Positions 7,929-60,357 of a DNA stretch of 64,000 nt are shown piece by piece. The notes beneath the pieces are model-generated. The model saw nothing but the letters and a program-made list of their open reading frames with translations. It made no database searches and was not told the DNA's origin. Numbering within the stretch: the first letter of the stretch is position 1; each line of letters opens with the position of its first letter. This DNA is from Candidatus Poribacteria bacterium. Its GTDB lineage: Bacteria; Poribacteria; WGA-4E; WGA-3G. Location of the stretch: the NCBI GenBank assembly GCA_963663765.2, contig CAXXUA010000002.1, forward strand, positions 32,001-96,000, written 5' to 3'. The position numbers were made by a program, and so were the translations under genes.

Positions 7929-7994
7929 ATTAGCAGTGAAGTTCTGCGCGTTTACAAAACGCGCTGACTGAGTTTGAGAAAATTAGAATTAACG

Positions 7995-8262: not shown

Positions 8263-8272
8263 ACGTAGTAGA

Positions 8273-32572: not shown

Positions 32573-32584
32573 TATCAAATGACC

Positions 32585-32698: not shown

Positions 32699-32703
32699 CT
32701 TAG

Positions 32704-32732
32704 AGTATAGCAAAACAAGTAGCAGTTGTCAA
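32704..32732 (-). promoter_or_regulatory. Near-consensus sigma70 promoter pointing toward the element end
   Basis: Minus strand TTGACA actgctacttgttttgc TATACT (17-nt spacer, extended TG). Confidence 0.75.
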
Positions 32733-32801
32733 TCCTATTTTCAAGGAAACTGCCTCGGTTTTGCTGAATAATGTTCGTCTGGTGGAACAGGAGGTTTAGT
32801 A

Positions 32802-34483: not shown

Positions 34484-34616
34484 GTTGACCTCCATGAATA
34501 GATTAACGGTATCCGAATACATCTACTCGTTAGTATAACTCATACTAAAAGTATAACTCATGGGGTCATTTGATACAAACTATAAATAGTAAAACCCGAT
34601 GCGCTATTAGGTTGTC

Positions 34617-35159
34617 GTGGTAACGTATCATGTATGCGTTACCACTCATATTGTATATACACAATTGAGAGGAAGAACAATAAATATTGAACTTGAACAA
34701 ATTTCAATTGATGAAAAACCTGTTCTCCGTAATCTGATGCAGTTGTGTTTTCACGATTACAGTGAGTTTAATAACGAGGATGTTGGACCTTATGGACTGT
34801 TCAACTATAAATATCTCGACTACTATTGGACAGAACCTGATCGTTTTGCTTACTTCGTAAAAGTTGAAGGAAAATTGGCAGGTTTTGCTCTCGGCATGCA
34901 TAACCGTTTAGTGGATGGAGAGAACGTAAATATTCTCTCCGAGTTCTTCATTCTCAGAAAATACAGACGAAAGGGGATAGGAATAAAGACTGCCCATAGT
35001 TTATTCAGAAAATATTCCGGTAAATGGTCAATTGTACAAGAAAAATATAATTATCCTGCCCAAACTTTTTGGAGAAAAGTTATTAACGAATATACAAAAG
35101 GCAACTTCACGGAAAGGCAACAAGAGAAAGGACCAATCCAAGAGTTTGAGACACCATAA
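34617..35159 (+). CDS. GNAT-family N-acetyltransferase
   Basis: LAGFAL, EFFILRKYRRKGIG and AQTFWRKVI motifs. Start uncertain. Confidence 0.85.
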   Translation: MVTYHVCVTTHIVYTQLRGRTINIELEQISIDEKPVLRNLMQLCFHDYSEFNNEDVGPYGLFNYKYLDYYWTEPDRFAYFVKVEGKLAGFALGMHNRLVDGENVNILSEFFILRKYRRKGIGIKTAHSLFRKYSGKWSIVQEKYNYPAQTFWRKVINEYTKGNFTERQQEKGPIQEFETP

Positions 35160-42508: not shown

Positions 42509-42817
42509 AAATGACCATGGGGTTATTATCTTGTGTCTTTTTCACGAGTAAAGAGTAGATGTGCACTAAAGTCTATCCGGTACAACAGCAAGAAGTCATT
42601 TCGCATTGAAATTGAATTATTGTATGTTGACAAATTTCTATTCATAAAAGAAGAATGAATCGTATGAAAAAGATGGCATTTTTTCTGTTAACCTTACTTG
42701 ATCTTTTAATTATCAGCTTACAAACAGCGTATTGTGCTTACGAAGATCGCTTAGGGTTGTATGCATAATTATCACAGACGATTGCACTTTGTAATCAAAC
42801 AAAAAAAGGAGTATATT

Positions 42818-45800
42818 ATGGATTTGTTAAGAAAAAAACCAAATACAATCGTGTCAATGCTTTTTGTCATCTTTTTGATTTTTTGCGGACAAAGTAACAG
42901 TTTCAGTCAGGACCAAAATAATGTACCTGAGATTACCCCAGTTTGTGATAGAACCTCACAGGTACGGGATGCAATTGTTGCTATAGTACCGGGGATAGAT
43001 GAATGTAAGGATATTACATCTACGCATTTGTCTGTGATTTCCAGCCTCAATCTGAGTAACTTGACAATTACGGCTCTCAAGGAAGGTGATTTTGATGGTC
43101 TATCCGCGTTAACATCGCTTTCTATAGGGAATAACCAGTTAACCAGCTTACCAACGACAATCTTTTCAGGTTTATCTTCATTGACAAGGCTTGACTTAGG
43201 TAGTAACAAGTTAAGCAGTCTACATGAGGATATCTTTTCCGGACTGACTTTGCTGAATAGAGTCTATTTATCGTATAACAACTTGAGTAGTCTACCAGAT
43301 GATATTTTTTCTGGACTGTCTTCATTGCAATCGCTTGCGTTAAGTAACAATAATCTCAGTAGTCTACCTGCGGGTCTATTTTCTGGGCTGTCTTCCTTGG
43401 ATTGGTTATCACTAGCTTCCAACAGTTTAAGTGAGTTACCCGATGGTATTTTTTCGGGGTTGTCTTCCCTACGTTCTCTCTCTTTGACTGAAAACTCAGT
43501 TAATTTATCTATTACTGTTTCATTGAAAAAAGTTGGTGATAGTCAATTTAAGGCAATTGCCCCCATCGGAGCACCCTTCAATATCGTTTTGCCGTTGACT
43601 CTTTTGAATGGGAGCATTGGCGACGATACAACTACTGTTACGATTCCCACTGGTAGTGTTGAAAGTGGTTTATTCAATGTTACTCGCACACCCAGCACTA
43701 TAGATCCTATCACTATAGAAATTGGAACTTTGCCGACCTTACCCTCAGGTCATTTCGGTTATCGCCTCGTCGAACCGACATCTACGGAAGAAAACAGTAA
43801 TATACTTAGTTTTGTTGTTACTATTCCCAACGATTACGAATCTACTGATAACAATCCTCCTGTTTTCACCGAGGGTGAAAGGACCACACGCAATATAGCC
43901 GAAAACACACCCACAGGTAAAAACATTGGAGATCCAGTCTTAGCAACAGATGTGGATTCCTATCTGTTGACTTACATTCTCGGTGGTACAGATGCAGCAT
44001 CATTTAGTATTGAGAGTGGTACGGGTCAGTTGAAGACGCGTTCAGCCCTCGACTATGAAACGAAGAATACTTATGCTGTTTCGGTCACAGTTTCAGATGG
44101 AAACCTCACAGATATCATCAGTGTTACCATCAAGGTCACAGATGTGTTTGAAAACAGTGCGCCTGTTTTCGCTGAGGGTGCAACTACCGAACGTTCAATA
44201 GCCGAAAACACACCCGCTGGCAGAAACATCGGAGGTCCTGTGGTTGCAACTGACCCGGATGAAGAGGACACCTTGACTTACATTCTCGGTGGCACAGACG
44301 CAGCAGCATTTAGTATTGAGAGTGGTACGGGTCAGTTGAAGACGCGTTCAGCCCTCGACTATGAAACGAAGAATACTTATGCTGTTTCGGTCACAGTTTC
44401 AGATGGAAACCTCACAGATATCATCAGTGTTACCATCAAGGTCACAGATGTGTTTGAAAACAGTGCGCCTGTTTTCGCTGAGGGTGAAACTACCGAACGT
44501 TCAATAGCCGAAAACACACCCGCTGGCAGAAACATCGGAGGTCCTGTGGTTGCAACTGACCCGGATGAAGAGGACACCTTGACTTACAGTCTTGGTGGCA
44601 CAGACGCAGCAGCATTTAGTATTGAGAGTGGTACGGGTCAGTTGAAGACGCGTTCAGCCCTCGACTTTGAAACGAAGAATACTTATGCTGTTTCGGTCAC
44701 AGTTTCAGATGGAAACCTCACAGATATCATCAGCGTTGCCATCAAGGTCACAGATGTGTTTGAAAACAGTGCGCCTGTTTTCGCTGAGGGTGCAACTACC
44801 GAACGTTCAATAGCCGAAAACACACCCGCTGGCAGAAACATCGGAGGTCCTGTGGTTGCGACTGACCCGGATGAAGAGGACACCTTGACTTACATTCTCG
44901 GTGGCACAGACGCAGCAGCATTTAGTATTGAGAGTGGTACGGGTCAGTTGAAGACGCGTTCAGCCCTCGACTTTGAAACGAAGAATACTTATGCTGTTTC
45001 GGTCACAGTTTCAGATGGAAACCTCACAGATATCATCAGCGTTGCCATCAAGGTCACAGATGTGTTTGAAAACAGTGCGCCTGTTTTCGCTGAGGGTGCA
45101 ACTACCGAACGTTCAATAGCCGAAAACACACCCGCTGGTAGAAACATCGGAGGTCCTGTGGTTGCGACTGACCCGGATGAAGAGGACACCTTGACTTACA
45201 TTCTCGGTGGCACAGATGCAGCAACATTTAGTATTGAGAGTGCTACGGGTCAGTTGAAGACGCGTTCAGCCCTTGACTACGAGACAAAGAATACTTATGC
45301 TGTGTCTGTCTCAGTCTCAGACGGTAATGGTGGATTTGACATCATCAGTGTTGCCATCAAAGTCACAGATGTGTTTGAAAATAACGCACCTGTTTTCGTT
45401 GAGGGTGAAACTACCGAACGTTCAATAGCCGAAAACACACCCGCTGGTAGAAACATCGGAGGTCCTGTGGTTGCGACTGACCCGGATGAAGAGGACACCT
45501 TGACTTACATTCTCGGTGGCACAGATGCAGCAACATTTAGTATTGAGAGTGCTACGGGTCAGTTGAAGACGCGTTCAGCCCTTGACTACGAGACAAAGAA
45601 TACTTATGCTGTGTCTGTCTCAGTCTCAGACGGTAATGGTGGATTTGACATCATCAGTGTTGCCATCAAGGTCACAGATGTGTTTGAAAATAACGCACCT
45701 ATTTTCGTTGAGGGTGCAACTACCGAACGTTCAATAGCCGAAAACACACCCGCTGGTAGAAACATCGGAGGTCCTGTGGTTGCGACTGACCCTGATGAAG

Positions 45801-48800
45801 AGGACACCTTGACTTACATTCTCGGTGGCACAGATGCAGCAACATTTAGTATTGAGAGTGCTACGGGTCAGTTGAAGACGCGTTCAGCCCTTGACTACGA
45901 GACAAAGAATACTTATGCTGTGTCTGTCTCAGTCTCAGACGGTAATGGTGGATTTGACATCATCAGTGTTGCCATCAAGGTCACAGATGTGTTTGAAAAT
46001 AACGCACCTGTTTTCGTTGAGGGTGAAACTACCGAACGTTCAATAGCCGAAAACACACCCGCTGGTAGAAACATCGGAGGTCCTGTGGTTGCGACTGACC
46101 CGGATGAAGAGGACACCTTGACTTACATTCTCGGTGGCACAGATGCAGCAACATTTAGTATTGAGAGTGCTACGGGTCAGTTGAAGACGCGTTCAGCCCT
46201 TGACTACGAGACAAAGAATACTTATGCTGTGTCTGTCTCAGTCTCAGACGGTAATGGTGGAATTGACATCATCAGTGTTGCCATCAAGGTCACAGATGTG
46301 TTTGAGAATAACGCGCCTGTTTTCGTTGAGGGTGAAACTACCGAACGTTCAATAGCCGAAAACACACCCGCTGGCAGAAACATTGGAAGTCCTGTGGTAG
46401 CGACTGACCCGGATGAAGAGGATACCTTGACCTATACACTTGGTGGAGTAGATGCGGTCTCCTTCAGCATTGAGAGTGCTACGGGTCAGTTGAAGACGCG
46501 TGCATTCCTTGACTTTGAAGCAAAGAATACACATTTGGTAGCGGTTACCGTCTCCGATGGTAATGGTGGTACAGACATCATCAGTGTTGTCATCAATGTC
46601 AAGGATTTAGATGAAACACCAACGCTTCACCCACCGGTTTTCGTTGAAGGTGATAGTACCGAACGTTCAATAGCCGAAAACACACCTGCCGGCAGAAACA
46701 TTGGAAGTCCTGTGGTTGCGACTGACCCGGATGAAGAGGACACTTTGACTTACAGTCTCGGTGGCACAGATGCAGCAACATTTAGTATTGAGAGTGCTAC
46801 GGGTCAGCTGAAGACGCGTTCAGCCCTCGACTATGAAACGAAGAATGCTTATGCTGTGTCGGTCACAGTTTCAGATGGAAACCTCACAGATATCATCAGC
46901 GTTGCCATCAAGGTTATAGATGTGTTTGAAAATAACCCGCCCGTTTTCGTTGAAGGTGATAGTACCGAACGTTCAATAGCTGAAAACACACCTGCAGGCA
47001 GAAACATCGGAAGTCCTGTGGTAGCGACTGACCCTGATGAAGAGGACACCTTGACTTACAGTCTCGGTGGCACTGATGCAGCAACATTTAGTATTGAGAG
47101 TGCTACGGGTCAGCTGAAGACGCGTTCAGCCCTCGACTTTGAAACGAAGAATGCTTATGTTGTGTTTGTCTCTGTCTCAGACGGAAATGGTGGAATTGAC
47201 ATCATCAGTGTTGCCATCAAGGTCACAGATGTATTTGAAAATAACCCGCCCGTTTTCGTTGAAGGTGATAGTACCGAACGTTCAATAGCTGAAAACACAC
47301 CTGCAGGCAGAAACATCGGAAGTCCTGTGGTTGCGACTGACCCTGATGAAGAGGACACCTTGACTTACAGTCTCGGTGGCACTGATGCAGCAACATTTAG
47401 TATTAAGAGTGGTACGGGTCAGCTGAAGACGCGTTCAGCCCTCGACTATGAAACGAAGAATGCTTATGTTGTGTTTGTCTCTGTCTCAGACGGTAATGGT
47501 GGATTTGACATCATCAGTGTTGCCATCAAAGTCACAGATGTGTTTGAAAATAACGCACCTGTTTTCGTTGAAGGTGATAGTACCGAACGTTCAATAGCTG
47601 AAAACACACCTGCAGGCAGAAACATCGGAAGTCCTGTGGTTGCGACTGACCCTGATGAAGAGGACACCTTGACTTACAGTCTCGGTGGCACAGATGCAGC
47701 AACATTTAGTATTGAGAGTGCTACGGGTCAGTTGAAGACGCGTTCAACACTTGATTATGAAACGAAGAATGCTTATGTTGTGTTTGTCTCTGTCTCAGAC
47801 GGTAATGGTGGAATTGACATCATCAGTATTGCCATCAAGGTCACAGATGTATTTGAAAATAACCCGCCTGTATTCGTTGAAGGTGATAGTACCGAACGTT
47901 CAATAGTTGAAAACACACCTGCCGGCAGAAACATCGGAGGTCCTGTGGTAGCGACTGACCCTGATGAAGAGGACACCTTGACTTACAGTCTCGGTGGCAC
48001 AGATGCAGCAACATTTAGTATTGAGAGTGCTACGGGTCAGTTAAAAACGCGTTCACTACTTGATTATGAAACGAAGAATGCTTATGTTGTGTTTGTCTCT
48101 GTCTCAGACGGTAATGGTGGAATTGACATCATCAGTGTTGCCATCAAGGTCACAGATGTATTTGAAAATAACCCGCCCGTTTTCGTTGAAGGTGAAACCG
48201 CTACACGAGAAATAGCTGAAAACACACCTGCAGGCAGAAACATCGGAGGTCCTGTGGTTGCGACTGACCCTGATGAAGAGGACACCTTGACTTACAGTCT
48301 CGGTGGTACAGACGCAGCAACATTTAGTATTGAGAGTGCTACGGGTCAGTTGAAGACGCGTTCAATCCTCGACTTTGAAACGAAGAATGCTTATGCGGTG
48401 TCTGTCTCTGTCTCAGACGGTAATGGTGGGATTGACATCATCAGTGTTGCCATCAAGGTCACAGATGTATTTGAAAATAGTCCGCCCGTTTTCGTTGAAG
48501 GTGAAACCGCTACACGAGAAATAGCTGAAAACACACCTGCAGGCAGAAACATCGGAGGTCCTGTGGTTGCGACTGACCCGGATGAAGAGGACACCTTGAC
48601 TTACATTCTCGGTGGCACAGATGCAGCAACATTTAGTATTGAGAGTGGTACGGGTCAGTTGAAGACGCGTTCAGCCCTCGACTTTGAGACGAAGAATGCT
48701 TATGCAGTGTCTGTCTCTGTCTCAGACGGTAATGGTGGGATTGACATCATCAGTGTTGCCATCAAGGTCACAGATGTATTTGAAAATAGTCCGCCCGTTT

Positions 48801-50983
48801 TCGTTGAAGGTGAAACCGCTACACGAGAAATAGCTGAAAACACACCTGCAGGCAGAAACATCGGAGGTCCTGTGGTTGCGACTGACCCGGATGAAGAGGA
48901 CACCTTGACTTACATTCTCAGTGGCACAGATGCAGCAACATTTAGTATTGAGGGTGGTACGGGTCAGTTGAAGACGCGTTCAGCCCTCGACTTTGAGACG
49001 AAGAATGCTTATGTTGTGTCTGTCTCTGTCTCAGACGGTAATGGTGGAATTGACATCATCAGTGTTGCCATCAAGGTCACAGATGTATTTGAAAATAACC
49101 CGCCAGTTTTCGCTGCGGGTGAAACCACGACACGTTCTATACTTGAAAACACACCTATAGGCAGAAACATAGGAGATCCTGTAACTGCGACTGACCCTGA
49201 TGAAGAGGACACTTTGATTTACAGTCTCGGTGGCACAGATGCGATCTCCTTTAGCATTGAGAATGCGACCGGTCAGTTGAAAACACATGCAGTGCTTGAT
49301 TATGAAACAAAGAATTCATATACAGTAACAGTAAATGTCTCTGATGGCAGCCAAACTGTTTCTATCGTTGTCATCATCATTGTTATTGACGTAGACGAGG
49401 GTAATGCACCTGTTTTTGCTGGTAATCGCACGACGCGTTCAGTGCAGGAAAACACACCATCTGGTGTAAACGTCGGGAGTCCAGTGGCTGCTACGGATGC
49501 TGATAGCGACACCTTGATTTACAGTCTGGACGGCACAGATGCATCCTCGTTCAGCATTGTCAGCACCTCCGGTCAGTTGAAGACGCTCGCACCATTGGAT
49601 TTTGAAACAAAAAATTCATATACAGTAACTGTAACTGTATCAGATGGTAGTCGTACTGCTGCCATTACCGTAGATATCACTATCATTGACGTAGACGAAT
49701 CTCCACCTGAATTGGTAAAGAGTAGGGTCAGTATTAGTGAAATCATGTATGGATCGGAAAGACACTTTACTCCAACCCAATGGATAGAATTAAATAATGC
49801 TGGTCCGGACATCATCAATCTGGCAGGATGGAAACTGACATTTCAGAATGTCGACTCACAAGACTTGACCGGACCGGTAAATGGAACAATCACCTTCAAG
49901 GATGACTTCTGGGGTGATGCGCCGAGAATTTGGCCAAATGAAGTTCTTATGGTAGTAGGAACAGGGAATACAAACTCAGGTAACCTTCTTGATGATCAGA
50001 TTTACGACCTTGTCTGGAGAACATCGTTATCTCTCGGTTTTTGGACTACATGGTTAAGTGCAGAAGGCTTCCGCATAAGACTGTATGATGATGATGGGAA
50101 CCTGGTGGACGAGGCTGGAAACCTTGATGGAAGCATTCTACGATGGGACTTACCTTATGGTCAAAACAGGGGCAAAATCAGAGCGGGGAATCGGACCTCG
50201 TTGATCCGTCGCTATGCCAATAGTATGCCGCTTGATGGAACCCAAGCAAATGGCTGGATCTCAGCTGTGGACGCGAATTTATCAGCGGATCAAATAACCT
50301 ATTATGGGCCTTCGGATGATATCAGCACACCTGGAACCGGGATCGTCATTAACGACATCTCCCCACAGTACATAGTGTATGATATTAACCAGGACGGCGT
50401 GGTAGATATCGTAGATTTAGTAATTGTTGCAGGACGTATCGGACAATCCGGTCCCAACGCTGCAGATGTTAACGGTGATGGCGTTGTTAACATACAAGAC
50501 CTGATACTTGTGGCGAGTGCACTCGGTCAAACACCCGCAGCACCGTCATTTCAACCCGCGTCATTCGCAATGCTCACAGCAGCCGATATTCAAGGGTGGC
50601 TGACTGCAGCACAAGGTTTAAACCTAACGGATACGAAGGTACAAAGCGGTATCCGTTTTTTAGAGCAACTGCTTGTAGTGTTGACTCCGAAAAAGACCGA
50701 ACTGCTCTCTAATTTCCCTAATCCGTTTAACCCTGAAACGTGGATACCATATCGATTGGCAGAAGATGCTTTTGTCAAACTCACCATCTACGACCAGCGC
50801 GGGGTTGTCATCCGCAAAATCAATGTTGGACACAAAACCGCCGCAGTCTACGAAAGAAAGTCAAATGCTATCTATTGGGATGGCAGAAATGAGGTTGGCG
50901 ACAGGGTTGCGAGTGGAATTTTCTTCTACACCCTAACTGCAGGCAATTATACTGCAACACGAAAAATGCTTATTCTCAAGTAA
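42818..50983 (+). CDS. Giant surface adhesin: LRR + about 19 cadherin-like repeats + lamin-tail-like domain + dockerin + C-terminal tail
   Basis: LxxLxLxxNxLxxLP repeats, 306/309-bp cadherin repeats (PVF..G...AENT...ATDPD...LDYE), ISEIMY..QWIEL.N, DINQDG and NPFNPETWIPY. Likely start is ATG 42818 after AGGAG; the track starts at 42761. Confidence 0.92.
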   Translation: MDLLRKKPNTIVSMLFVIFLIFCGQSNSFSQDQNNVPEITPVCDRTSQVRDAIVAIVPGIDECKDITSTHLSVISSLNLSNLTITALKEGDFDGLSALTSLSIGNNQLTSLPTTIFSGLSSLTRLDLGSNKLSSLHEDIFSGLTLLNRVYLSYNNLSSLPDDIFSGLSSLQSLALSNNNLSSLPAGLFSGLSSLDWLSLASNSLSELPDGIFSGLSSLRSLSLTENSVNLSITVSLKKVGDSQFKAIAPIGAPFNIVLPLTLLNGSIGDDTTTVTIPTGSVESGLFNVTRTPSTIDPITIEIGTLPTLPSGHFGYRLVEPTSTEENSNILSFVVTIPNDYESTDNNPPVFTEGERTTRNIAENTPTGKNIGDPVLATDVDSYLLTYILGGTDAASFSIESGTGQLKTRSALDYETKNTYAVSVTVSDGNLTDIISVTIKVTDVFENSAPVFAEGATTERSIAENTPAGRNIGGPVVATDPDEEDTLTYILGGTDAAAFSIESGTGQLKTRSALDYETKNTYAVSVTVSDGNLTDIISVTIKVTDVFENSAPVFAEGETTERSIAENTPAGRNIGGPVVATDPDEEDTLTYSLGGTDAAAFSIESGTGQLKTRSALDFETKNTYAVSVTVSDGNLTDIISVAIKVTDVFENSAPVFAEGATTERSIAENTPAGRNIGGPVVATDPDEEDTLTYILGGTDAAAFSIESGTGQLKTRSALDFETKNTYAVSVTVSDGNLTDIISVAIKVTDVFENSAPVFAEGATTERSIAENTPAGRNIGGPVVATDPDEEDTLTYILGGTDAATFSIESATGQLKTRSALDYETKNTYAVSVSVSDGNGGFDIISVAIKVTDVFENNAPVFVEGETTERSIAENTPAGRNIGGPVVATDPDEEDTLTYILGGTDAATFSIESATGQLKTRSALDYETKNTYAVSVSVSDGNGGFDIISVAIKVTDVFENNAPIFVEGATTERSIAENTPAGRNIGGPVVATDPDEEDTLTYILGGTDAATFSIESATGQLKTRSALDYETKNTYAVSVSVSDGNGGFDIISVAIKVTDVFENNAPVFVEGETTERSIAENTPAGRNIGGPVVATDPDEEDTLTYILGGTDAATFSIESATGQLKTRSALDYETKNTYAVSVSVSDGNGGIDIISVAIKVTDVFENNAPVFVEGETTERSIAENTPAGRNIGSPVVATDPDEEDTLTYTLGGVDAVSFSIESATGQLKTRAFLDFEAKNTHLVAVTVSDGNGGTDIISVVINVKDLDETPTLHPPVFVEGDSTERSIAENTPAGRNIGSPVVATDPDEEDTLTYSLGGTDAATFSIESATGQLKTRSALDYETKNAYAVSVTVSDGNLTDIISVAIKVIDVFENNPPVFVEGDSTERSIAENTPAGRNIGSPVVATDPDEEDTLTYSLGGTDAATFSIESATGQLKTRSALDFETKNAYVVFVSVSDGNGGIDIISVAIKVTDVFENNPPVFVEGDSTERSIAENTPAGRNIGSPVVATDPDEEDTLTYSLGGTDAATFSIKSGTGQLKTRSALDYETKNAYVVFVSVSDGNGGFDIISVAIKVTDVFENNAPVFVEGDSTERSIAENTPAGRNIGSPVVATDPDEEDTLTYSLGGTDAATFSIESATGQLKTRSTLDYETKNAYVVFVSVSDGNGGIDIISIAIKVTDVFENNPPVFVEGDSTERSIVENTPAGRNIGGPVVATDPDEEDTLTYSLGGTDAATFSIESATGQLKTRSLLDYETKNAYVVFVSVSDGNGGIDIISVAIKVTDVFENNPPVFVEGETATREIAENTPAGRNIGGPVVATDPDEEDTLTYSLGGTDAATFSIESATGQLKTRSILDFETKNAYAVSVSVSDGNGGIDIISVAIKVTDVFENSPPVFVEGETATREIAENTPAGRNIGGPVVATDPDEEDTLTYILGGTDAATFSIESGTGQLKTRSALDFETKNAYAVSVSVSDGNGGIDIISVAIKVTDVFENSPPVFVEGETATREIAENTPAGRNIGGPVVATDPDEEDTLTYILSGTDAATFSIEGGTGQLKTRSALDFETKNAYVVSVSVSDGNGGIDIISVAIKVTDVFENNPPVFAAGETTTRSILENTPIGRNIGDPVTATDPDEEDTLIYSLGGTDAISFSIENATGQLKTHAVLDYETKNSYTVTVNVSDGSQTVSIVVIIIVIDVDEGNAPVFAGNRTTRSVQENTPSGVNVGSPVAATDADSDTLIYSLDGTDASSFSIVSTSGQLKTLAPLDFETKNSYTVTVTVSDGSRTAAITVDITIIDVDESPPELVKSRVSISEIMYGSERHFTPTQWIELNNAGPDIINLAGWKLTFQNVDSQDLTGPVNGTITFKDDFWGDAPRIWPNEVLMVVGTGNTNSGNLLDDQIYDLVWRTSLSLGFWTTWLSAEGFRIRLYDDDGNLVDEAGNLDGSILRWDLPYGQNRGKIRAGNRTSLIRRYANSMPLDGTQANGWISAVDANLSADQITYYGPSDDISTPGTGIVINDISPQYIVYDINQDGVVDIVDLVIVAGRIGQSGPNAADVNGDGVVNIQDLILVASALGQTPAAPSFQPASFAMLTAADIQGWLTAAQGLNLTDTKVQSGIRFLEQLLVVLTPKKTELLSNFPNPFNPETWIPYRLAEDAFVKLTIYDQRGVVIRKINVGHKTAAVYERKSNAIYWDGRNEVGDRVASGIFFYTLTAGNYTATRKMLILK
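43850..49700 (+). repeat. Intragenic near-identical 306/309-bp tandem repeats (cadherin-like domains)
   Basis: Antisense shadow ORFs recur at 306- or 309-bp spacing, and the DNA-level identity is visible by eye. Confidence 0.95.
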
Positions 50984-51371: not shown

Positions 51372-51514
51372 TATAATTATAATGGAATTTAGAATTGCAT
51401 TGACACATTTTTGCTGTAGGAGGGAACACCGCTTTCCGACACGTTGTCTCGATTCGGAGATCTCTCCTACAGAAAATGTGATAAGTTATGCTACAACTCA
51501 TTTATAAGGTTGCT

Positions 51515-54500
51515 ATGAATTTTCTAAGAAAATTATTTTCAATCACACTTATAGCATGCAGTCTTCTCGGAATGACATCCCATGCAATGTGTTTGGATAA
51601 GAAAATAGAACAGTTGTCTGGTCCTTCCAATGCTCAGACAACAATGCTAACCCCGGTGAGTCAAGATGATACGGAACATCTTACTATTTTATATGGTACC
51701 CAGGAAAACATGAATACAAGTGTTCCACCACCACAAATTCTGAGACGATATAACAGCGAAAACAATCTTAATACGGAACAATCACAATTTATCGTAACCT
51801 ACATTGGTTTCACAGACGAAGCGCAAGAGGCATTTCAATATGCAGTTGATATTTGGGATTCCTTAATCCGAACACAAGTACCCATTAGGATTAACGCCTC
51901 TTTTATAGACTTTGGTGGTTTTGAGAATAATAATATTATTTTGGGGGGCGCACGTCCAGCAGATTGGAAATCACCAGGATCATTAAATCTATGGTTCGTT
52001 GATGCACTCTCTGATATGCAAGCAGGTAAAGACCTTTCTGATGGTGCACCAGATATTATTACGAAATTCAACAGCAACCAAGAGGTTAATTGGTATTTTG
52101 GTATAGATGGTAATACGCCTTCAGGGAAGATGGATTTCGTGAGTACCGTGATTCATGAGATTGCGCATGGTCTCGGTTTTAGTAGTTTTGCAAGGATAGA
52201 AAATAGTTCAAATGACATATTCTCTTTGTCTGTTGCGCAAGGTACATTGAGAGGTAAGAGTCCCAAATTTCCTCAAATTTACGATTTCTTCGTTGAGAAT
52301 GGGTCAGGGACAGCTCTAATATCATTTTTTGATCCATCTTCTGGTCTTGTTGAGCAATTCACCAGTAACAACATCTATTGGAATGGAAAGATAGGGGTAA
52401 AAGCAAACGGAGGAATCCTTCCCCATCTTTACGCCCCCAGTATCTGGGAGCAAGGGTCAAGTTACACTCATTTAGATGAGGATTCATTTCCAGCAGGCGA
52501 TGAAAATTCTTTAATGACACCGTATTTCGGTAGACAAGAGGCAATTCACAATCCTGGTTCCATTACACTCGGCATGTTAGAAGATATGGGATGGTCAATC
52601 AACAAGGCACCAGTGTTTGTTGACGGTACTAATACCACGCGCACCTTGGTAGAAAATGCAGGGTCAGACGTAAATATCGGTAGGCCTATCTTCGCTATGG
52701 ATGATAACAACGATAATCTAACCTATCAGTTGAGTGGTACTGATGCTGCACTGTTTGTCATTGATAGCACTACAGGACAGGTAAAAACAAATATAGGACA
52801 AGAATATAACAGAACATCTTATACGGTTACTGTCATTGTGTCGGATGGTCGACTCATTACTGAAATCATTGTTATCATTCAGGTGAGTACGACAACAGTT
52901 GTAACACCTAATAACAACCCACCGATTTTCACAGATGGCTCCCATACAACACGGACTGTCGTTGAAAACACTACATCAGGCGTAGATATCGGCGATCCGA
53001 TAACCGCTACAGATGCGGACAACCACTATCTAACTTATACGTTAAGCGGGGTTGACGCAGCATTGTTTGAAATTAATGACGCAACTGGACAACTGAAAAC
53101 AAAGGTCGCCCTCGACTACGAAACGAATCGCACTTATACCGTAACCCTCACCGTATCTGATGGGAGTCTTACCGACACAATCACTGTGACTATTAATGTT
53201 ACCGACAAGGACGTTGAAACTACACCTACCCTAACATTAATTTCACATCCCCTAATGGAAACAACCTTGAATGGGAGTCTGGTAACACTAAAATTAAACC
53301 ATAGCGTCTACGAAAATTGGCTCATAAATCCCGTGACAGTATCTGGTATACCTGGGGTAACCGTGAAAACATCTAATGTTGTGCGGGCAGCAGATACCGA
53401 GTTAAGATTACAACTGACTTTCGATGGGACAGACTTCGACACCAACGCAACCCTCACTTTCACAGTAAAAACAGATGCCATTGAAAACTACAGCGACTCC
53501 CCACTCAAAGCAACCATTCTGGTCACCGCCGCACAGGAATCTGTAAATGCGTCAACAATAACACCGCCAACAGAAACAACATTGAACGGAACCGTTGTTA
53601 CGCTAACATTAAGCGGTGCTGTCTACGAATCCAAGTACACTGTTGGAAATAACGTGTCCGTATCGGGTATTACCGGTGTAAGTGTTAACAGGTTAAATGT
53701 CGTACGCATCAGCGGGACGCAGGTTAACGTCGCCCTGAAATTCGATGGAACGGATTTTGACTCCAATGCCATGCTCACTATCACAGTAGGGGCGGATGCT
53801 ATAGCAAGCTACAACGGTACAGAACTCGTCGCGCAATTACCCGTCATTGCTGTTGTGGAGGAAAATCCGTCAATAATTGCCTTTGTATCGGAATCCCTTA
53901 CAGAAACTACACTCAATGAGAGCTTAGTCACACTTACACTCTCATCTGATGTATACATGCAATCCAGTTCTGTTATCAACCGCTCAATTCAAGTATCTGG
54001 TATTGCCGGTGTTACGGTTCGTCAATCCGATGTTGCGCGCGTTAGTGACACGAAGGTAACTGTTAAAATTACTTATGATGGGACTAATTTTGATACTGAT
54101 TCCAAACTTATTTTCACGGTTACCGCAGACGCTATCGAAAATTATACCGGACCCGCACTCATAAGCGTGATACCTGTTACTGCTGTGATCGAAAGCAAAC
54201 CAACAGTAACTGTGGTAACTTCACAACCCTTGACTGAGGCGAACCTTAATGAAAACGTAATCCTATTGACACTCAACAATGGCACTTACGTACAATCTCT
54301 ATTTGACATTGAAGATTCACTGACAGTATCAGGGATATCCGGCGTAACGCTTAATAGATATGGAGTGAGACGTGTTAGTGACACAGATATTTCAGTTGAA
54401 CTTGAATTCGACGGTAACTTTGATTCCAATGCTATTCTGACCTTTTCTGTCGGTGCTGATGCCATAGTTGGATATGAGGGTGCTGACCTGATCATACAAC

Positions 54501-57394
54501 TCCCTGTTGCTGGTGGACAGGAAACGCTAATCGCATCAACAGCAGCACCACTGACTGAGGTAACACTGAATGGGAGTGTCGTCACACTCACAATAAACGG
54601 TGCAATCTTCAAACGATCCAGAATTGACATCGGTAATGCTATAACGGTTTCTGGAGTAAATGGTGTCACTTTCCACTGGTTTGATATAGACCGAGTCAGC
54701 GATACTAATTTGACAGTTGAACTCTCATTTAATGGCAACATTGATGAAGATGCCACGTTGACCTTTACTGTTGGTGCGGATGCTATAGCTGGATATGATG
54801 GTGATGCCCTCATCACACAACTACCGGTTACCGCGCTGCAGGAATCAGTCTCTGCTACAACTGAGTCGTCCTTGGCAGAGGCAACATTGGATGGAAGCAT
54901 CGTCACACTCACGCTCAGCGGATGTACTTTTGAACGATCACTCTTCAACATCAGAAATGGGGTGACAGTTTCTGGTGTTGATGGAGTTAAGATCTATAGT
55001 TTTGGGATTGACCGTGTCAGCGATACGCAGATAAATGTTGAGCTTGAATTCAACGGAGATTTTGATACAGATGCTACATTAACATTTACCGTAGGTGTGA
55101 ATGCGATTTTACGGTATAACGGTGATCCCTTGACTGCACAACTCACTGTAACTGGGGGGCAGGAAACGGTAATCGCATCAACAGCAGCACCACTGACTGA
55201 GGTAACACTGAATGGGAGTGTCGTCACACTCACGCTCAGTGGTGCTAAATACACCCGCAATACCTTTGATCTTAGAGACGGTGTCTCCGTTTCTGGTATT
55301 GAGGGTGTAATAATTCCGTGGCACGACCCAAGGAAAAAAAGTGATACTGAAATTACAATTGAATTGGAATTTGATGGGACAGACTTTGATACAACTTCCA
55401 CGCTGACTTTTACTGTTGAATCAGATGCCTTTGCAGGTTACAACGGTCCTGCTCTCACGACACAGATATCTGTTTCCGAAGTGGTAGAATCATTGCTTGC
55501 CTCAAGCGCATCACCGTTGACAGAAGCGACATTAGATGAAAGTGTCGTTACCCTGACCCTCATCGGCAGGAATTATACCCGGACTATTTATGACATTAGA
55601 GATGCTGTGTCAGTCTCAGGTATTTCTGGTGTAACATTCCCGTGGAATGAACCGGTTAAAAAGAGTGATACTGAAATCACGATGAAACTGGAGTTTGATG
55701 GGGATATGACAAGTGATGGCACACTGACCTTTACTGTTGGATCGGATGCTATCGCTGGTTATAATGGTTCGGTACTGACTGCACAAGTGTCTGTCTCTGC
55801 CACAAGTACAACAACACCATCAAACCGTGCGCCAGTATTTACTGAAGGTAGCAGCACCACGCGCTCAGTAGCAGAGAACACGGCGTCGGGTGTAAATATC
55901 GGCAGTGTGGTTGCTGCCACAGATGCGGATACCGGTGATACGCTCACGTATAGTCTGGGTGGCACAAATGCATCAGCGTTCAGCATTGTCAGCAATTCGG
56001 GGCAGCTGCAAACTAAAGCTGCACTTGACTACGAAACGATGACATCCTACTCTGTCATCATCTCTGTTACGGATGGTCGTGGCGGGAGTGATAGCATCAC
56101 CGTGGCAATCAACATCACTGATGTAAACGAAGCTATTCCAAACCGTGCGCCAATATTTACCGAAGGTAGCAGCACCACGCGCTCAGTAGCAGAGAACACC
56201 GCATCGGGTGTAAATATCGGCAGTGCGGTTGCTGCCACAGATGCGGATAGGAATACGCTTACGTATAGTCTGGGTGGCACAAATGCATCAGCGTTCAGCA
56301 TTGTCAGCAATTCGGGGCAGCTGCAAACTAAAGCTGCACTTGACTACGAAACGATGACATCCTACTCCGTCATCGTCTCTGTTACGGATGGAAATGGCGG
56401 GAGTGATAGCATTATAGTCACAATTAATATCACTGATGTGTCTGAGACACCTACAAATGGCAGACCATCCATCAGTGTTTCTGCGGATACGACATTAACA
56501 GAGGCAACACTTGATGGTACAGTGGTTACCCTCACGCTAACAAGTGGCACTTATGAAAGCGCATTCTGGAATTATCAAAAGGTATCTGTCTCTGGGATCA
56601 CAGGTGTGACTTTTAATGACTTTTTTGATGTTGAGCGCGCGAGTAGCACAGAACTCACCGTCGAACTGACATTTGATGGGAACATGACCACTGATGGCAC
56701 GCTGACCTTTACCGTTGAATCGGATGCGATTGTGGATTTTGATGATTCGGCACTGACTGCGCAAATATCAGTCTCCGCCGTCAGTGAGTCTGTCACTGCT
56801 TCGCCCGCTACATTGACCGAGGCGTCCCTTGATGGTGCAAAGGTTACCCTCACGCTCAGCGGACAGATATTTGAGCGATCTATTCATTACATTAGAGATG
56901 CTGTGTCAGTCTCAGGTATATCCGGTGTAACATTCCCTTGGCATGACCCGGATAAAAAGAGTGATACCGAAATCACGATGGAACTGGAGTTTGATGGGGA
57001 TATGACAAGTGATGGCACACTGACCTTTATGGTTGGAGCGGATGCTATCGCGGGCTATAATGGTTCGGCACTGACTGCACAAGTGTCTGTCACAGCAAGC
57101 CAAGAGAACGCTCTCGGGGCAAACTTCCCAAACCCATTCAATCCAGAAACGTGGATACCGTATCAGTTATCCAAAGCATCTAATGTTAGCTTGACGATCT
57201 ACAATATGCGTGGGGTTGTCGTTCGGGAATCGAAGTTAGGGCAGAAAGCAGCGGGTGTGTATCAAAGCCGTAGTCGTGCTATCCATTGGGATGGTAGAAA
57301 CGAAATCGGTGAGAAGGTCGCGAGCGGCTTGTATTTCTACACACTTACAGCGGGTGATTTTACCGCAACGCGCAAGATGTTGATAAGGAAATAG
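51515..57394 (+). CDS. Large secreted zinc-metalloprotease-like protein with 4 cadherin-like domains, 10 copies of a ~105-aa repeat and a C-terminal tail
   Basis: HEIAHGLGF, SSYTHLDE, LMTP, repeated LTE.TL.GSVVTLTL...VSVSGI.GV...LEFDG.FD...TLTFTV..DAI..Y.G units and NPFNPETWIPY. The track starts at 51488. Confidence 0.88.
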   Translation: MNFLRKLFSITLIACSLLGMTSHAMCLDKKIEQLSGPSNAQTTMLTPVSQDDTEHLTILYGTQENMNTSVPPPQILRRYNSENNLNTEQSQFIVTYIGFTDEAQEAFQYAVDIWDSLIRTQVPIRINASFIDFGGFENNNIILGGARPADWKSPGSLNLWFVDALSDMQAGKDLSDGAPDIITKFNSNQEVNWYFGIDGNTPSGKMDFVSTVIHEIAHGLGFSSFARIENSSNDIFSLSVAQGTLRGKSPKFPQIYDFFVENGSGTALISFFDPSSGLVEQFTSNNIYWNGKIGVKANGGILPHLYAPSIWEQGSSYTHLDEDSFPAGDENSLMTPYFGRQEAIHNPGSITLGMLEDMGWSINKAPVFVDGTNTTRTLVENAGSDVNIGRPIFAMDDNNDNLTYQLSGTDAALFVIDSTTGQVKTNIGQEYNRTSYTVTVIVSDGRLITEIIVIIQVSTTTVVTPNNNPPIFTDGSHTTRTVVENTTSGVDIGDPITATDADNHYLTYTLSGVDAALFEINDATGQLKTKVALDYETNRTYTVTLTVSDGSLTDTITVTINVTDKDVETTPTLTLISHPLMETTLNGSLVTLKLNHSVYENWLINPVTVSGIPGVTVKTSNVVRAADTELRLQLTFDGTDFDTNATLTFTVKTDAIENYSDSPLKATILVTAAQESVNASTITPPTETTLNGTVVTLTLSGAVYESKYTVGNNVSVSGITGVSVNRLNVVRISGTQVNVALKFDGTDFDSNAMLTITVGADAIASYNGTELVAQLPVIAVVEENPSIIAFVSESLTETTLNESLVTLTLSSDVYMQSSSVINRSIQVSGIAGVTVRQSDVARVSDTKVTVKITYDGTNFDTDSKLIFTVTADAIENYTGPALISVIPVTAVIESKPTVTVVTSQPLTEANLNENVILLTLNNGTYVQSLFDIEDSLTVSGISGVTLNRYGVRRVSDTDISVELEFDGNFDSNAILTFSVGADAIVGYEGADLIIQLPVAGGQETLIASTAAPLTEVTLNGSVVTLTINGAIFKRSRIDIGNAITVSGVNGVTFHWFDIDRVSDTNLTVELSFNGNIDEDATLTFTVGADAIAGYDGDALITQLPVTALQESVSATTESSLAEATLDGSIVTLTLSGCTFERSLFNIRNGVTVSGVDGVKIYSFGIDRVSDTQINVELEFNGDFDTDATLTFTVGVNAILRYNGDPLTAQLTVTGGQETVIASTAAPLTEVTLNGSVVTLTLSGAKYTRNTFDLRDGVSVSGIEGVIIPWHDPRKKSDTEITIELEFDGTDFDTTSTLTFTVESDAFAGYNGPALTTQISVSEVVESLLASSASPLTEATLDESVVTLTLIGRNYTRTIYDIRDAVSVSGISGVTFPWNEPVKKSDTEITMKLEFDGDMTSDGTLTFTVGSDAIAGYNGSVLTAQVSVSATSTTTPSNRAPVFTEGSSTTRSVAENTASGVNIGSVVAATDADTGDTLTYSLGGTNASAFSIVSNSGQLQTKAALDYETMTSYSVIISVTDGRGGSDSITVAINITDVNEAIPNRAPIFTEGSSTTRSVAENTASGVNIGSAVAATDADRNTLTYSLGGTNASAFSIVSNSGQLQTKAALDYETMTSYSVIVSVTDGNGGSDSIIVTINITDVSETPTNGRPSISVSADTTLTEATLDGTVVTLTLTSGTYESAFWNYQKVSVSGITGVTFNDFFDVERASSTELTVELTFDGNMTTDGTLTFTVESDAIVDFDDSALTAQISVSAVSESVTASPATLTEASLDGAKVTLTLSGQIFERSIHYIRDAVSVSGISGVTFPWHDPDKKSDTEITMELEFDGDMTSDGTLTFMVGADAIAGYNGSALTAQVSVTASQENALGANFPNPFNPETWIPYQLSKASNVSLTIYNMRGVVVRESKLGQKAAGVYQSRSRAIHWDGRNEIGEKVASGLYFYTLTAGDFTATRKMLIRK

Positions 57395-57410
57395 TATCAA
57401 ATGACCATAG
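57394..57410. other. Isolated copy of the DUF1670-element end
   Basis: gtatcaaatgaccatag is identical to 32572-32588 and again supplies the G of a TAG stop. Confidence 0.75.
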
Positions 57411-57641
57411 TCTCATGTAAATTGAGAAGTGAAAAGTAGAAATCAACACATGGTTTTTGCTTTCCACAATATATACAATAACTCAATTTGCTACATACAG
57501 GATTTAAGTCATTCAAACACCGTTTTTAACAAAGTAAAAATACATTTTTCGCAAGATTTATGGTGAATTATGAAAATAATCATACAATGTTTTCAGTTAA
57601 CTGCTTGGTAGGAGAGCCATTGATTATCCCTCTTGTATTCG

Positions 57642-57847
57642 GTAGGAGCGACCTCCCGGTAGCGACCCGGGGAATGCCAAATGAAGATTAATTTATTAAT
57701 TCGGTAATAAATATTGCTCCAACGGTAGGTGTGCTTTGTAAGCGCTCTGTCGGGACTTGATGTGCCAGCGCGCTTACAAAGCACGCCTACCAGTGTAGGT
57801 TAGATAAAATTACCTAATTTATTTATTAATCTTCATAAGGCATTCAT
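57642..57847. mobile_element. REP half followed by a MITE holding a REP doublet
   Basis: gtaggagcgacctcccggtagcgac, then TIR gaatgccaaatgaagattaat / attaatcttcataaggcattc. Inverted homolog of about 5973-6128. Confidence 0.8.
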
Positions 57848-57933
57848 ACCGTTGATTTGGCGTATTCTGCCGAAAATAATGTCCAATTAATTCTAAAGTC
57901 TACTATACATTACTATAAAGGTTCAGTAATTTT

Positions 57934-60357
57934 ATGAAAACCTATCTTCTTCTAATTCTATTTTTGTTGACAGTCTCAACATTACCACTTTTTGCACAAA
58001 CAGGTACTATTGAAGGTACAGTCATCAATCAAAGCACAGGAAGACCTCTTTCGGGGGCAGAAGTCCATATACTTGAAATGGATGAAACCGAAAAAAGTGG
58101 AACAGATGGCAAAGTCTGGTTCACAGGTGTCTCACCCGGTACATATACCCTTACAATCACACACCCTTCATTTGTTACACCATCAAGAACAACCGTTCAA
58201 GTAACTGCGGGACACACTACACAAGCGAAAATGTCACTTGGTGAAGTATTTGAGTTAGAAACTGTGGTTGTTGAAGGTGAACGTTTTCCTCCCACGATAA
58301 GCCGTAAGGAGATACGCGGAAGTGAACTCTTACGTATTGCAGGCGTAGGAACTGATGCACTAAAAGGATTGACAACGCTTCCCAGTATCGGCATCCCAAA
58401 TGATTTCTTCGGTGTGCTGTATATCCGTGGGAGTGAACCCGGGTCGAACTTGTACTATCTTGACCGCACACCTCTCGGATACCCATTTCATTGGGGTGGA
58501 TTACTTTCAACTATCAGCTCAGAAACTATTGATACAATAGATATCTATGCGGGTGGATACGGTGCACAATTTGGATTAGATTCACAGTCAGTGCTTGACA
58601 TCCATGCACGCGACGAAATTGACACTTGGGTAAATGGAAAGTTTAATCTCAATATATGGTATTCTGAAGGGCTGCTTGAAGGTAAAATTGGTGAGAAAGG
58701 TTATATCTCTGCTTCTGGTCGAAGGAGTTACATAGATCTCATACTCGGACCAATTGCCGAAAGGCAGTCGGATACAGAACAGCAGTTTCCATATTTTTCT
58801 GATTACCAACTCAAATTGTATTACCCAATTACAGATAATCATCATTTAACTGTAAATGCGTTTGCAGCAACTGATCACTTTCATTTCCAGTCACAGGAAT
58901 CAACAGAAAGTAGAGATGTGACATTGGGTGAAAGGGACTCTAACGCTGTTACCTCAAGTATTTTTTTCAAGAACGGTTTCAATGGACAAGGTATCCACCT
59001 TCGCTCAATTTTCAATGAAAACCTACATTCCCACTTATCACTAACCCGATCCCTCAATTACCTTGATATTGAATTGGATGCCACAATCTCACAGACCAAC
59101 ATAGTAGATGGTGAAACCGTCTTTAATGTAACAGAATCCGCTGAGTACTTATTAAAGGTAGATGTTCCTGTCTACACTCTTCGCGAAGACCTATCGTATA
59201 GATTGACTCCGAAGATTCAACTGGAACCTGGAGTTCTCTTTGCATTTAGTCCTGCCAATAGTACAGAAGTTTCTAACTATCCATCTTATGAGTTGTTAGA
59301 AGATGAAAACAGAATACAAGAGTTACTTGAGAGCGATCCAGAGGATGTAGAATTTGACGAGGATAATGTTGCCTTTTTGCGTACAACTGAAACCAGAGAC
59401 TATGAATTTGGTCATGATTTGCAACGTATTGAAACTTATTTGCAAACAAGGTATGATCCATCCTCGATTGTATCTGTTGCCCTCGGTGTTAGACTTGATT
59501 ATCTCAATGTGATAGAGCAACTTTCTATACAACCGCGCGGAAGTGTAAGCATAAAACTGCCTATTGGTTCTAACCTAAGGTTTGCTTATGGACATTATGA
59601 ACAGAGTCCGCTACTATCCCAGTTGTTATCAGAGACTGGGAATGATACACTAAAATCCAGTCTGGCACAGCATTATATCATGGAAATTGAGCAGGAGGTC
59701 ACGCCCTTTACCGATTTTAAGTTCGCCACATATTACAAAAACATGCAAAATATAATCACTGAGGATGAAGTTTCCCATTTTCTTAATCAAGGTTCAGGAT
59801 ATGTTGGGGGTGTAGAGTTATTCCTTCGTCATCGTGTTCCTGACAAGTTCTTCGGATGGATTTCCTATGCGTACACCCACGCAGAACGGAAAGAAACACC
59901 TAACATAGATTATCAACCGTATCTATTTGATAACACCCATATCGTAAGCATTGTAGCACACTATTTTTTCAGTGATACCTTTGAGATTGGAGCTAAATGG
60001 CAGTATTTGAGCGGAACTTCTGAAGCACCGATTAGCACAATCATTTTGATTCAGGACCCTGTGACGCGCGGACTCAACCCACTTTTTGCCAGTTTTGACC
60101 GGGCATTGAGTGCTAAACTTACTCCTTATCACAAATTGGATCTCAGAATAAGCAAAAAATGGAACATAGGAGGCATGAAAATTGGAGGCTTTATTGAGAT
60201 ACTGAATGTCTACAACCGCAAAAACACCTTTGAATTTATCCTTGAAGAGGGGTCATTTGAGATACAAGGTGAAGAAGTACATATTGACGAACAGGAAATT
60301 GGTGAAGCGAGTCAATTACCTCGATTGCCTTATTTTGGTTTGACTGTAGAATTTTAG
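57934..60357 (+). CDS. TonB-dependent receptor with carboxypeptidase-regulatory-like N-domain
   Basis: GTIEGTV, LETVVV TonB box, LYIRGS plug, GGYGAQFG, NVYN motif and C-terminal Phe. Confidence 0.92.
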   Translation: MKTYLLLILFLLTVSTLPLFAQTGTIEGTVINQSTGRPLSGAEVHILEMDETEKSGTDGKVWFTGVSPGTYTLTITHPSFVTPSRTTVQVTAGHTTQAKMSLGEVFELETVVVEGERFPPTISRKEIRGSELLRIAGVGTDALKGLTTLPSIGIPNDFFGVLYIRGSEPGSNLYYLDRTPLGYPFHWGGLLSTISSETIDTIDIYAGGYGAQFGLDSQSVLDIHARDEIDTWVNGKFNLNIWYSEGLLEGKIGEKGYISASGRRSYIDLILGPIAERQSDTEQQFPYFSDYQLKLYYPITDNHHLTVNAFAATDHFHFQSQESTESRDVTLGERDSNAVTSSIFFKNGFNGQGIHLRSIFNENLHSHLSLTRSLNYLDIELDATISQTNIVDGETVFNVTESAEYLLKVDVPVYTLREDLSYRLTPKIQLEPGVLFAFSPANSTEVSNYPSYELLEDENRIQELLESDPEDVEFDEDNVAFLRTTETRDYEFGHDLQRIETYLQTRYDPSSIVSVALGVRLDYLNVIEQLSIQPRGSVSIKLPIGSNLRFAYGHYEQSPLLSQLLSETGNDTLKSSLAQHYIMEIEQEVTPFTDFKFATYYKNMQNIITEDEVSHFLNQGSGYVGGVELFLRHRVPDKFFGWISYAYTHAERKETPNIDYQPYLFDNTHIVSIVAHYFFSDTFEIGAKWQYLSGTSEAPISTIILIQDPVTRGLNPLFASFDRALSAKLTPYHKLDLRISKKWNIGGMKIGGFIEILNVYNRKNTFEFILEEGSFEIQGEEVHIDEQEIGEASQLPRLPYFGLTVEF

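Follow-up and report, generated by a model that had tools for sequence, protein, structure and literature searches.

A probable insertion sequence-like element with two DUF1670 genes occupies the last codon of type IX secretion tail genes and supplies their stop codon

We analysed a 64,000-nucleotide stretch of a Candidatus Poribacteria genome (contig CAXXUA010000002.1, positions 32,001 to 96,000; hereafter the window, numbered from its first base) in which two genes for proteins with a C-terminal sorting domain of the type IX secretion system (T9SS) end in the same short sequence. An earlier note on this DNA had taken that sequence for the end of an element that targets the 3' ends of one gene family. 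Our results make it likely that the window contains two copies, one intact and the other truncated, of an undescribed insertion sequence (IS)-like element with a specific target site, the last codon of genes with a T9SS type-A tail. The intact copy (32569-34583, minus strand) is 2015 bp long, has ATAG...CTAT termini and is flanked on both sides by AA. The truncated copy (57391-57410, plus strand) is a 20-nt solo left end, ATAGTATCAAATGACCATAG, which breaks off after element position 20.

The gene at the left end of the intact copy (29975-32572, plus strand) encodes a WD40-repeat protein with a T9SS type-A sorting domain (36.8 bits against TIGR04183). The gene at the solo left end (51488-57394, plus strand) encodes a cadherin-repeat protein with the same type of C-terminal sorting domain (33.5 bits for the whole protein, 42.4 bits for the last 100 amino acids) and with matches to Cadherin, FlgD_ig and CHU_C. 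Their products end in TATRKMLILK-TAG and TATRKMLIRK-TAG, respectively, and the earlier note had stated that identical bases follow in both genes. Indeed, pairwise comparison within the window shows a block of 22 nt, AAATAGTATCAAATGACCATAG, which is the same at 32567-32588 and 57389-57410 (22/22). The match was also said to end abruptly at 57410, and it does: from the next base the intact copy reads GATAGC and the other site TCTCAT. The tails of the two genes are paralogous and their DNA is 70-80% identical; their last 30 coding bases agree at 24 of 30 positions. Thus, because the adjoining upstream coding DNA is clearly less alike than the block itself, the 22 nt are not inherited tail sequence. 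Exactly three copies of the 13-mer GTATCAAATGACC are present in the window, at 32572 and 57394 on the plus strand and at 34564-34576 on the minus strand, and the copies at 32572 and 34564-34576 are the terminal inverted repeats (IRs) of the 2-kb element. No further piece of the element was found in 57301-58000, where residual matches are only 8-11 nt long (E 0.27 or worse). The comparison supports a reading of 57391-57410 as a truncated solo left end, and these bases provide the third base of the final Lys codon and the TAG stop of gene 51488-57394. A third tail gene of the window (42761-50983) is an unoccupied target: it ends in AAG TAA (50978-50983, plus strand) and, as the earlier note described, has a TAA stop and lacks the motif.

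The terminal IRs of the intact copy are imperfect, ATAGT-ATCAAATGACC and ATAGTTTGTATCAAATGACC, with a perfect core of 13 bp. Comparison with related loci shows the right IR continuing invariably into a conserved AAACTAT, or into AAACTTT in the remotest subfamily, and on this conservation we delimit the element as ATAG...CTAT at 32569-34583. Its genes lie on the minus strand, convergent with host gene 29975-32572. Open reading frame (ORF) A (33683-34483, minus strand) encodes 266 amino acids when counted from the start used by its homologues, the longest frame opening at 34522; ORF-B (32802-33686, minus strand) encodes 294 amino acids and its start overlaps the stop of ORF-A by 4 nt. Both match Pfam DUF1670 (PF07900, cut-off 25) strongly, with 206.5 bits (E 4.5e-61) for ORF-A and 207.7 bits (E 1.9e-61) for ORF-B, besides weak helix-turn-helix (HTH) models, and the two paralogues are 34% identical to each other. 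Across 11 copies they are the only conserved long ORFs, and neither a hidden third conserved ORF nor a neighbouring recombinase was found in these copies.

A scan of genome contigs with ORF-A yielded 58 loci from 26 assemblies, mostly Candidatus Poribacteria metagenome-assembled genomes (MAGs), together with Calditrichota, a 'Bacteroides sp.' MAG and an unclassified bacterium, in which ORF-A is 60-64% identical. A left-end pattern was then searched over these loci and the window (1.15 Mb). It gave 56 matches, of which one was spurious and one lay at a contig end, leaving 54 with flanks. Among these 54 independent left ends, 49 abut the final Lys or Arg codon of a T9SS type-A sorting-domain gene, and all 49 upstream translations pass TIGR04183 (28.7-54.6 bits, cut-off 23) with alignments that run through the end of the profile. 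Insertion orientation is identical in all cases, element genes and host gene always being convergent. Clustering at 95% identity leaves the 54 flanks in 54 separate clusters, and they are therefore all distinct sites. Tail targeting also holds in the Calditrichota, 'Bacteroides sp.' and unclassified genomes. The targeting of a specific gene family proposed in the earlier note is thus borne out across 26 assemblies, and the random placement relative to tails that it named as a refuting outcome is not what we see. Two further copies, in loci L019 and L020, also follow a tail, and in these an intron interrupts the left IR. It is an ORF-less group II intron of ~735 nt (RF00029, 65.6 bits; L019 11791-12547, L020 11788-12545) that is encoded on the strand of the host gene, with ATAGTAT on one side of it and CATATGACC on the other. 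The two tail genes concerned are different ones, and a related intron copy lies 3' of the TAA of another tail gene (L028 4289-5744).

The element is present in many copies and appears to be mobile. When the window element was compared with the related loci by BLAST, alignments stopped at both element ends in many genomes and the flanks were unrelated, and six identical copies within one genome diverge exactly at the element termini. Among 1994 candidates, 813 are ORF-A homologues at E <= 0.001, the top ones mostly of 264-266 amino acids, and many are encoded on contigs of ~2.0 kb, with at least 10 copies from one genome. We read these ~2.0-kb contigs as the signature of a repeated unit. A tblastn search against plasmids gave no match. 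In these respects the element resembles an IS: its ends are defined and bear inverted repeats, its many copies occupy different sites, and the flanks show a short duplication. A recognisable transposase, also expected of an IS, was found neither among Pfam/NCBIfam models nor as a PDB fold match, in both cases at E <= 0.001. We file it as an IS-like element of no described family. One 4-kb copy, in L026, was considered as a larger autonomous parent and rejected: its extra genes belong to nested, unrelated ISs (DDE_Tnp_1, and IS630-like HTH_Tnp_IS630 plus DDE_3, at 7949-10001), which sit ~28 nt inside the right end of the element.

Junction composition on the two sides of the element reveals how the host codon is rewritten. 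In the window, the left-flank AA (32567-32568) is the first two bases of the final Lys codon of gene 29975-32572, and the last 4 bases of this gene are element sequence. To the right, 34584-34589 (plus strand) reads AAATAG, that is, the right AA with the remainder of the displaced native Lys codon and stop of the same gene. Over all loci, occupied left junctions are nearly uniform, AAATAG in 47 of 48 and AGATAG in the remaining one. Unoccupied tails, 56 in number, end variously in AAGTAA (18), AAATAA (13), AAGTAG (10), AAATAG (9), AAATGA (4) or another sequence (2). A Lys/Arg codon (AAR/AGA) and a stop follow 47 of 52 real right ends, and their mix (AAGTAA 17, AAATAG 12, AAGTAG 9, AAATAA 5, AAGTGA 3, AGATAG 1) is similar to that of the unoccupied tails. 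The five exceptions are three non-tail sites, L001 (AAATCG, probably mutated) and L044, a rearranged copy. Hence the native last codon and stop lie to the right of the element, and the A+TAG on the left is element sequence. The earlier note had the element give the G of the stop codon. This is correct, but it fell short: given the displaced native Lys and stop 3' of the right end, the element supplies ATAG, i.e. the third base of the Lys codon and all of TAG, not G alone. Only AA is common to both flanks, and in L034, whose tail ends in Arg (AGA), AG is found on both sides. This shared dinucleotide is best read as a 2-bp duplication or a crossover dinucleotide. A duplication of 6 bp (AAATAG) or of TA was ruled out, since the left side never keeps a native G or stop and the right side keeps AAGTAA, AAGTAG or AAGTGA. 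Tandem paralogues in L009 provide an empty-site comparison: empty copies read ...ATTCTCAAATAG(A/T)CTTTCCTCGGAGGA..., and identical flanks enclose the element in the filled copy; the empty sites found are all of this paralogous kind. Beyond the displaced Lys and stop at 34584-34589, an ORF for a GNAT acetyltransferase (34617-35159) starts after ~30 nt; this ORF originally lay next to the WD40 tail gene, on its downstream side.

We next consider which tails are occupied. A tail hidden Markov model (HMM) built from the 49 occupied tails retrieved 104 Lys/Arg-terminal tail ORFs, 48 with an element left end and 56 without. It gives 137 bits to the third tail gene of the window, whose whole protein scores 19.9 bits against TIGR04183, below the 23-bit cut-off. 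On a FastTree phylogeny of the 104 tails, occupancy requires 34 changes, against 34.6 +/- 2.5 in 300 label shuffles. Because the observed count lies within the shuffled range, occupancy is not bound to one clade of tails, the other outcome that the earlier note had named as fatal to its idea. Base profiles from -45 to -1 are nearly identical for 48 occupied and 54 unique unoccupied tails (consensus AC.CG.AArATG.T.AT.ytgAA), and therefore any tail end looks like a potential target. Extra target determinants were sought and rejected: the likeness of the IR to some targets through TTGATAC is not enriched at occupied sites. In L009, four paralogous tail genes ending in KTTR(Q/R)MVILK form a tandem array (tail stops at reverse-strand index 6907, 8979, 12953 and 15063), and one of them is occupied.

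The solo end at 57394, which the earlier note had called a scar, is one of five remnants found after tails, the others being L012:17159 (20 nt), L006:17647 (80 nt), L048:7446 (~13 nt) and L037:5707 (degenerate). The L012 remnant derives from a subfamily that differs at positions 17-20, and it too is exactly 20 nt long. In both, the break between positions 20 and 21 coincides with the first base of an arm of a conserved, imperfect subterminal inverted repeat. In the intact copy this repeat spans 32589-32628, with arms at 32589-32601 and 32616-32628 (element positions 21-33 and 48-60) and a 14-nt loop, CTGATGTTTATTAG; 79% of its cells are paired, against 31-50% in slid controls. A palindrome-associated deletion is thus the likely origin of 57391-57410. 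Other decay forms are a 547-bp copy with both ends kept and its interior deleted, at a tail stop codon (L056 9932-10478), which looks like a non-autonomous derivative of the miniature inverted-repeat transposable element (MITE) type; copies truncated to the right part in L021, L057 and L058; broken ORFs in L037 and L027; and nested insertions.

What the two proteins do has to be approached from family, alignment and fold. DUF1670 is a large family, with 993 representative clusters at E <= 0.001 and 534 at 1e-10, in which tandem fusions of two and three units exist; such fusions fit units that work together. In alignments of 75 and 91 sequences, two His and one Tyr are invariant and R, Q, D, R/G, D, G, K and Y are near-invariant. 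As we read the alignments, the His and Tyr residues appear to lie in an HTH_23-like motif preceded by an arm of the form RG..HD.G...(T/S)HK. AlphaFold models with a predicted local distance difference test (pLDDT) of 87.5 for ORF-B and 84.6 for ORF-A are almost wholly helical, with one small beta-hairpin, and their best partial Foldseek matches are to paired-domain, MntR and SelB winged-helix modules. Both proteins thus look like multi-HTH nucleic-acid binders, as far as these predictions go. No transposase, recombinase, defence or phage family was matched, PADLOC and PHROGs giving only weak HTH-type hits, and a PDB sequence search returned nothing meaningful. The best ESM Atlas score (0.81) is to HTH_23-bearing archaeal clusters and serves as a lead only. 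A predicted complex of ORF-A and ORF-B scored 0.30 against a mark of 0.32 and was not used as evidence either way. In the library searched, no literature was found on DUF1670 or PF07900, and nothing relevant by title or abstract on Poribacteria insertion sequences or transposases or on type IX secretion together with insertion sequence and stop codon.

The left end also carries a near-consensus sigma-70-type promoter (32704-32732, minus strand; TTGACA-17-TATACT, TG-extended, 11 of 12 positions). Of 24 distinct Poribacteria left ends, 22 contain the pattern, with variation in the spacer. The promoter points outward at a distance of ~128 nt from the left terminus, or of 96 nt in one subfamily that is short, and its direction is always antisense to the host tail gene. 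A transcript would comprise the final 96-129 nt of the element and then continue into the tail in antisense. Promoters at circle junctions are used by some ISs, and in a circular form of the present element transcription from this promoter would cross the junction and enter ORF-A and ORF-B. A structured or guide RNA at the left end was considered and is not claimed: an Rfam scan of 32300-34800 found no family, RNAalifold predicted no consensus structure from 23 left-end transcripts, and the covariation analysis was null as well.

Together, these results suggest the following mechanism. The element integrates in fixed orientation into the last codon of T9SS type-A tail genes (...RKM(L/V)IxK-stop). 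The break falls within the codon, behind its first two bases (AA, with AG in the Arg case), and both bases recur on each side of the insert. The first four bases of the element, A+TAG, then complete the Lys or Arg codon and form a new stop, and the native third base and stop are pushed 2 kb downstream. Because A+TAG restores Lys/Arg and a stop, the secreted protein is unchanged, and because tails are numerous they form a harmless landing site in many copies; the idea of a multi-copy site that keeps the protein intact, already voiced in the earlier note, agrees with the Lys/Arg and stop rebuilt at the junction. In the copy at 57394, a deletion would have taken away all element sequence beyond position 20, where the subterminal inverted repeat has its base, and the 20 bases at 57391-57410 may persist because they now carry the stop codon of the gene and are held by selection. 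The DUF1670 pair would bind the ends and the target and perform or direct recombination, probably via an excised or circular form read across by the outward promoter. Whether the pair goes so far as to constitute a new recombinase or transposase class, without DDE, DEDD, Ser, Tyr or HUH folds, serving as a scarless safe-harbour integrase for a gene family in several phyla, is a proposal that we make only tentatively.

The sequence at 57394 could be explained in other ways. If a tail 3' end had been duplicated or gene-converted together with an element end, the site would merely record the history of the gene family, and the paralogy of the two tails, at 70-80% DNA identity, and the occurrence of tails in tandem arrays such as that of L009 would suit this. 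The earlier note had raised the same alternative, a gene end copied along with the IR. But a co-copied tract should be equally alike on both sides, and it is not: the 22-nt junction is identical and the adjacent coding bases match at 24 of 30. In addition, no listed left flank resembles the ...GATAAGGAAATAG end, all 54 flanks are distinct and occupancy is scattered over the tail tree. We therefore regard duplication as highly improbable. It might instead be asked whether the 20 nt are a direct product of element chemistry: the footprint of an excision, the outcome of an integration that aborted or joined one end only, or the result of a cut at the subterminal repeat's base. That two independent remnants from different subfamilies both break at 20|21, the first base of the inverted-repeat arm, speaks for this. 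However, other remnants measure 80 and ~13 nt, copies reduced to their right part (L021, L057) fit general decay, and neither a right-end remnant nor a displaced Lys and stop stands beside the scar; with two cases only, chemistry seems to us an unlikely, though not negligible, origin. A truncated solo left end produced by deletion remains our preferred explanation for 57391-57410.

Several points weigh against our interpretation as a whole. Five of the 54 insertions (L013, L030, L039, L043 and L055) lie outside tails, with in-frame stops upstream. The loci were selected for ORF-A, so that the 48/104 occupancy of tails is inflated, and among tails other than the index host only ~4 of 59 carry an end by our own tally. 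The deletion at 57394 is inferred, and the common 20-nt length of two scars may be due to chance, given remnants of ~13 and 80 nt. No circle junction or excision product was observed, and compensatory change in the subterminal repeat is absent, with 0 of 13 pairs altered on both sides. Foldseek found no PDB match at E <= 0.001 for either ORF-A or ORF-B, Pfam and NCBIfam models detect no catalytic domain in them, only DUF1670 and HTH models, and the pair could thus act as the specificity factor of an enzyme whose gene lies elsewhere. This last possibility, in which the role of the DUF1670 proteins is confined to recognition of ends and target, strand cleavage and joining fall to an enzyme of the host or of another element, and the unit is non-autonomous, deserves to be taken seriously, even if we would not favour it. 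It draws on the same lack of a known catalytic fold in two HTH/winged-helix arrays, and on the finding that 13 longer homologues, including the double and triple fusions, add no enzyme domain. Set against it, the two-gene unit, its ends and its target persist at 60% protein identity across phyla, ~2-kb units recur as separate contigs, non-autonomous elements rarely keep conserved ORFs, and no conserved third ORF or neighbouring recombinase was seen in 11 copies, the DDE genes of L026 being unrelated nested ISs. An RNA encoded by the element could also guide targeting, transcribed from the outward promoter and pairing with the coding sequence of the tail much as bridge or omega RNAs do. The promoter, present in 22 of 24 left ends, would run into the tail antisense, and the subterminal loop GATGTTTATT resembles ATG-NTN-ATH of the tails. 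Yet the sense of this loop is that of the coding strand of the target, and the loop varies at the positions that would have to pair; no Rfam family, RNAalifold consensus or covarying pair was obtained, and no known RNA-guided enzyme domain was detected with Pfam/NCBIfam; RNA guidance is accordingly very unlikely in our view.

Some further observations were made along the way. At two of the non-tail sites (L055 12029 and L013 11941) the break context is still ..AA|R...; the right flank of L055, AAGTATC, resembles the left end of the element itself, and the left flank of L013 is like a short tail mimic (KVIVK). In the window, a near-perfect palindrome of ~170 nt (57672-57845) lies 260 nt 3' of the solo end, with a DNA fold of -48.5 kcal/mol (z -9.4), and a second copy, 88.8% identical, is found at 5969-6128. 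The palindrome arms contain the core of a 32-bp tandem unit, and short matches of 27-30 nt are present in many loci, so that the palindrome looks like a repetitive extragenic palindromic (REP) or MITE-like sequence. The tandem unit, AGGCGTGCTTTGTAAGCGCGCCCCCCAACTGC, forms an array at 18452-19433 (30.7 copies, 98% matches) that is overlaid by three overlapping ORFs.

If our interpretation is right, DUF1670 acquires a function as the core of an unrecognised family of mobile elements, and the landing site of this family is the conserved coding end of a protein domain, hit inside a codon, with frame and stop preserved by bases that the element brings. T9SS cargo genes of Poribacteria and related bacteria would then owe part of their stop codons and 3' ends to elements that are themselves unannotated. 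For the evolution of sponge-symbiont genomes, it would mean that cargo genes of WD40, cadherin and leucine-rich repeat type are hit and that each insert aims a strong predicted antisense promoter at its host gene. Should DUF1670 prove catalytic, it would be a recombinase with no known fold, and the element might offer a compact, orientation-specific and sequence-specific integration system as a tool.

Comparison with known systems places the element among site-specific integrators, at some distance from each. Tn7 with TnsD recognises a conserved 3' coding end, that of glmS at attTn7, and inserts in one orientation without harm to the protein; its target is a single-copy essential gene, insertion falls ~23 bp downstream, and it uses TnsABC+D (DDE, AAA+) with a 5-bp duplication. 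The present element likewise uses a conserved 3' coding end as a safe haven in fixed orientation. Unlike Tn7, it targets a multi-copy domain family, breaks within the last codon, rebuilds codon and stop, and encodes only a pair of small HTH proteins, and its flank repeat is 2 bp long; a TnsA/B/C core is absent, both ORFs conserved in 11 copies being DUF1670. IS110/IS1111 elements use bridge-RNA-guided DEDD recombinases and a 2-nt donor/target core, and sequence-specific insertion into repeated targets, fixed orientation, a 2-nt core and a circle-compatible promoter are shared with our element, which unlike them has clear terminal inverted repeats; ORF-A and ORF-B contain no DEDD/RuvC-like or Tnp domain, and the left end shows no Rfam match or covariation. 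Terminal inverted repeats and a 2-bp flank recall IS630/Tc1-mariner, elements with a TA 2-bp duplication, a DDE_3 domain and a paired-domain-like double HTH, and the weak partial Foldseek matches include Pax5 and Pax6. However, the flank is AA/AG rather than TA, target specificity is extreme, and no DDE_3 match was found with Pfam. Islands and integrative and conjugative elements (ICEs) with tyrosine integrases enter the 3' ends of tRNA or protein genes and restore them, over an overlap of at least 7 bp plus an arm. The present element similarly integrates inside a gene 3' end and carries the rebuilding bases, but it shares only 2 bp with its target and its targets number dozens per genome; neither a Pfam Phage_integrase nor a Foldseek match points to a tyrosine recombinase, whose catalytic fold bears the residues R-K-H-R-H/W-Y, and the invariant His, His and Tyr of DUF1670 appear to belong to the HTH_23-like motif. 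The 2-bp crossover dinucleotide of the serine-recombinase element IS607 has a counterpart here, and the C-terminal arm-plus-HTH is Hin-like by eye; no Pfam resolvase domain and no conserved Ser was found, the latter in the alignments of 75 and 91 sequences. IS200/IS605 elements, which have an HUH Y1 TnpA and subterminal hairpins but lack inverted repeats, are set apart by the terminal inverted repeats of our element, whose proteins gave no Y1_Tnp match in Pfam. What is new, then, is the combination of proteins without a known transposase, a target formed by the last codon of a domain family, whose codon and stop are rewritten, and a spread across phyla.

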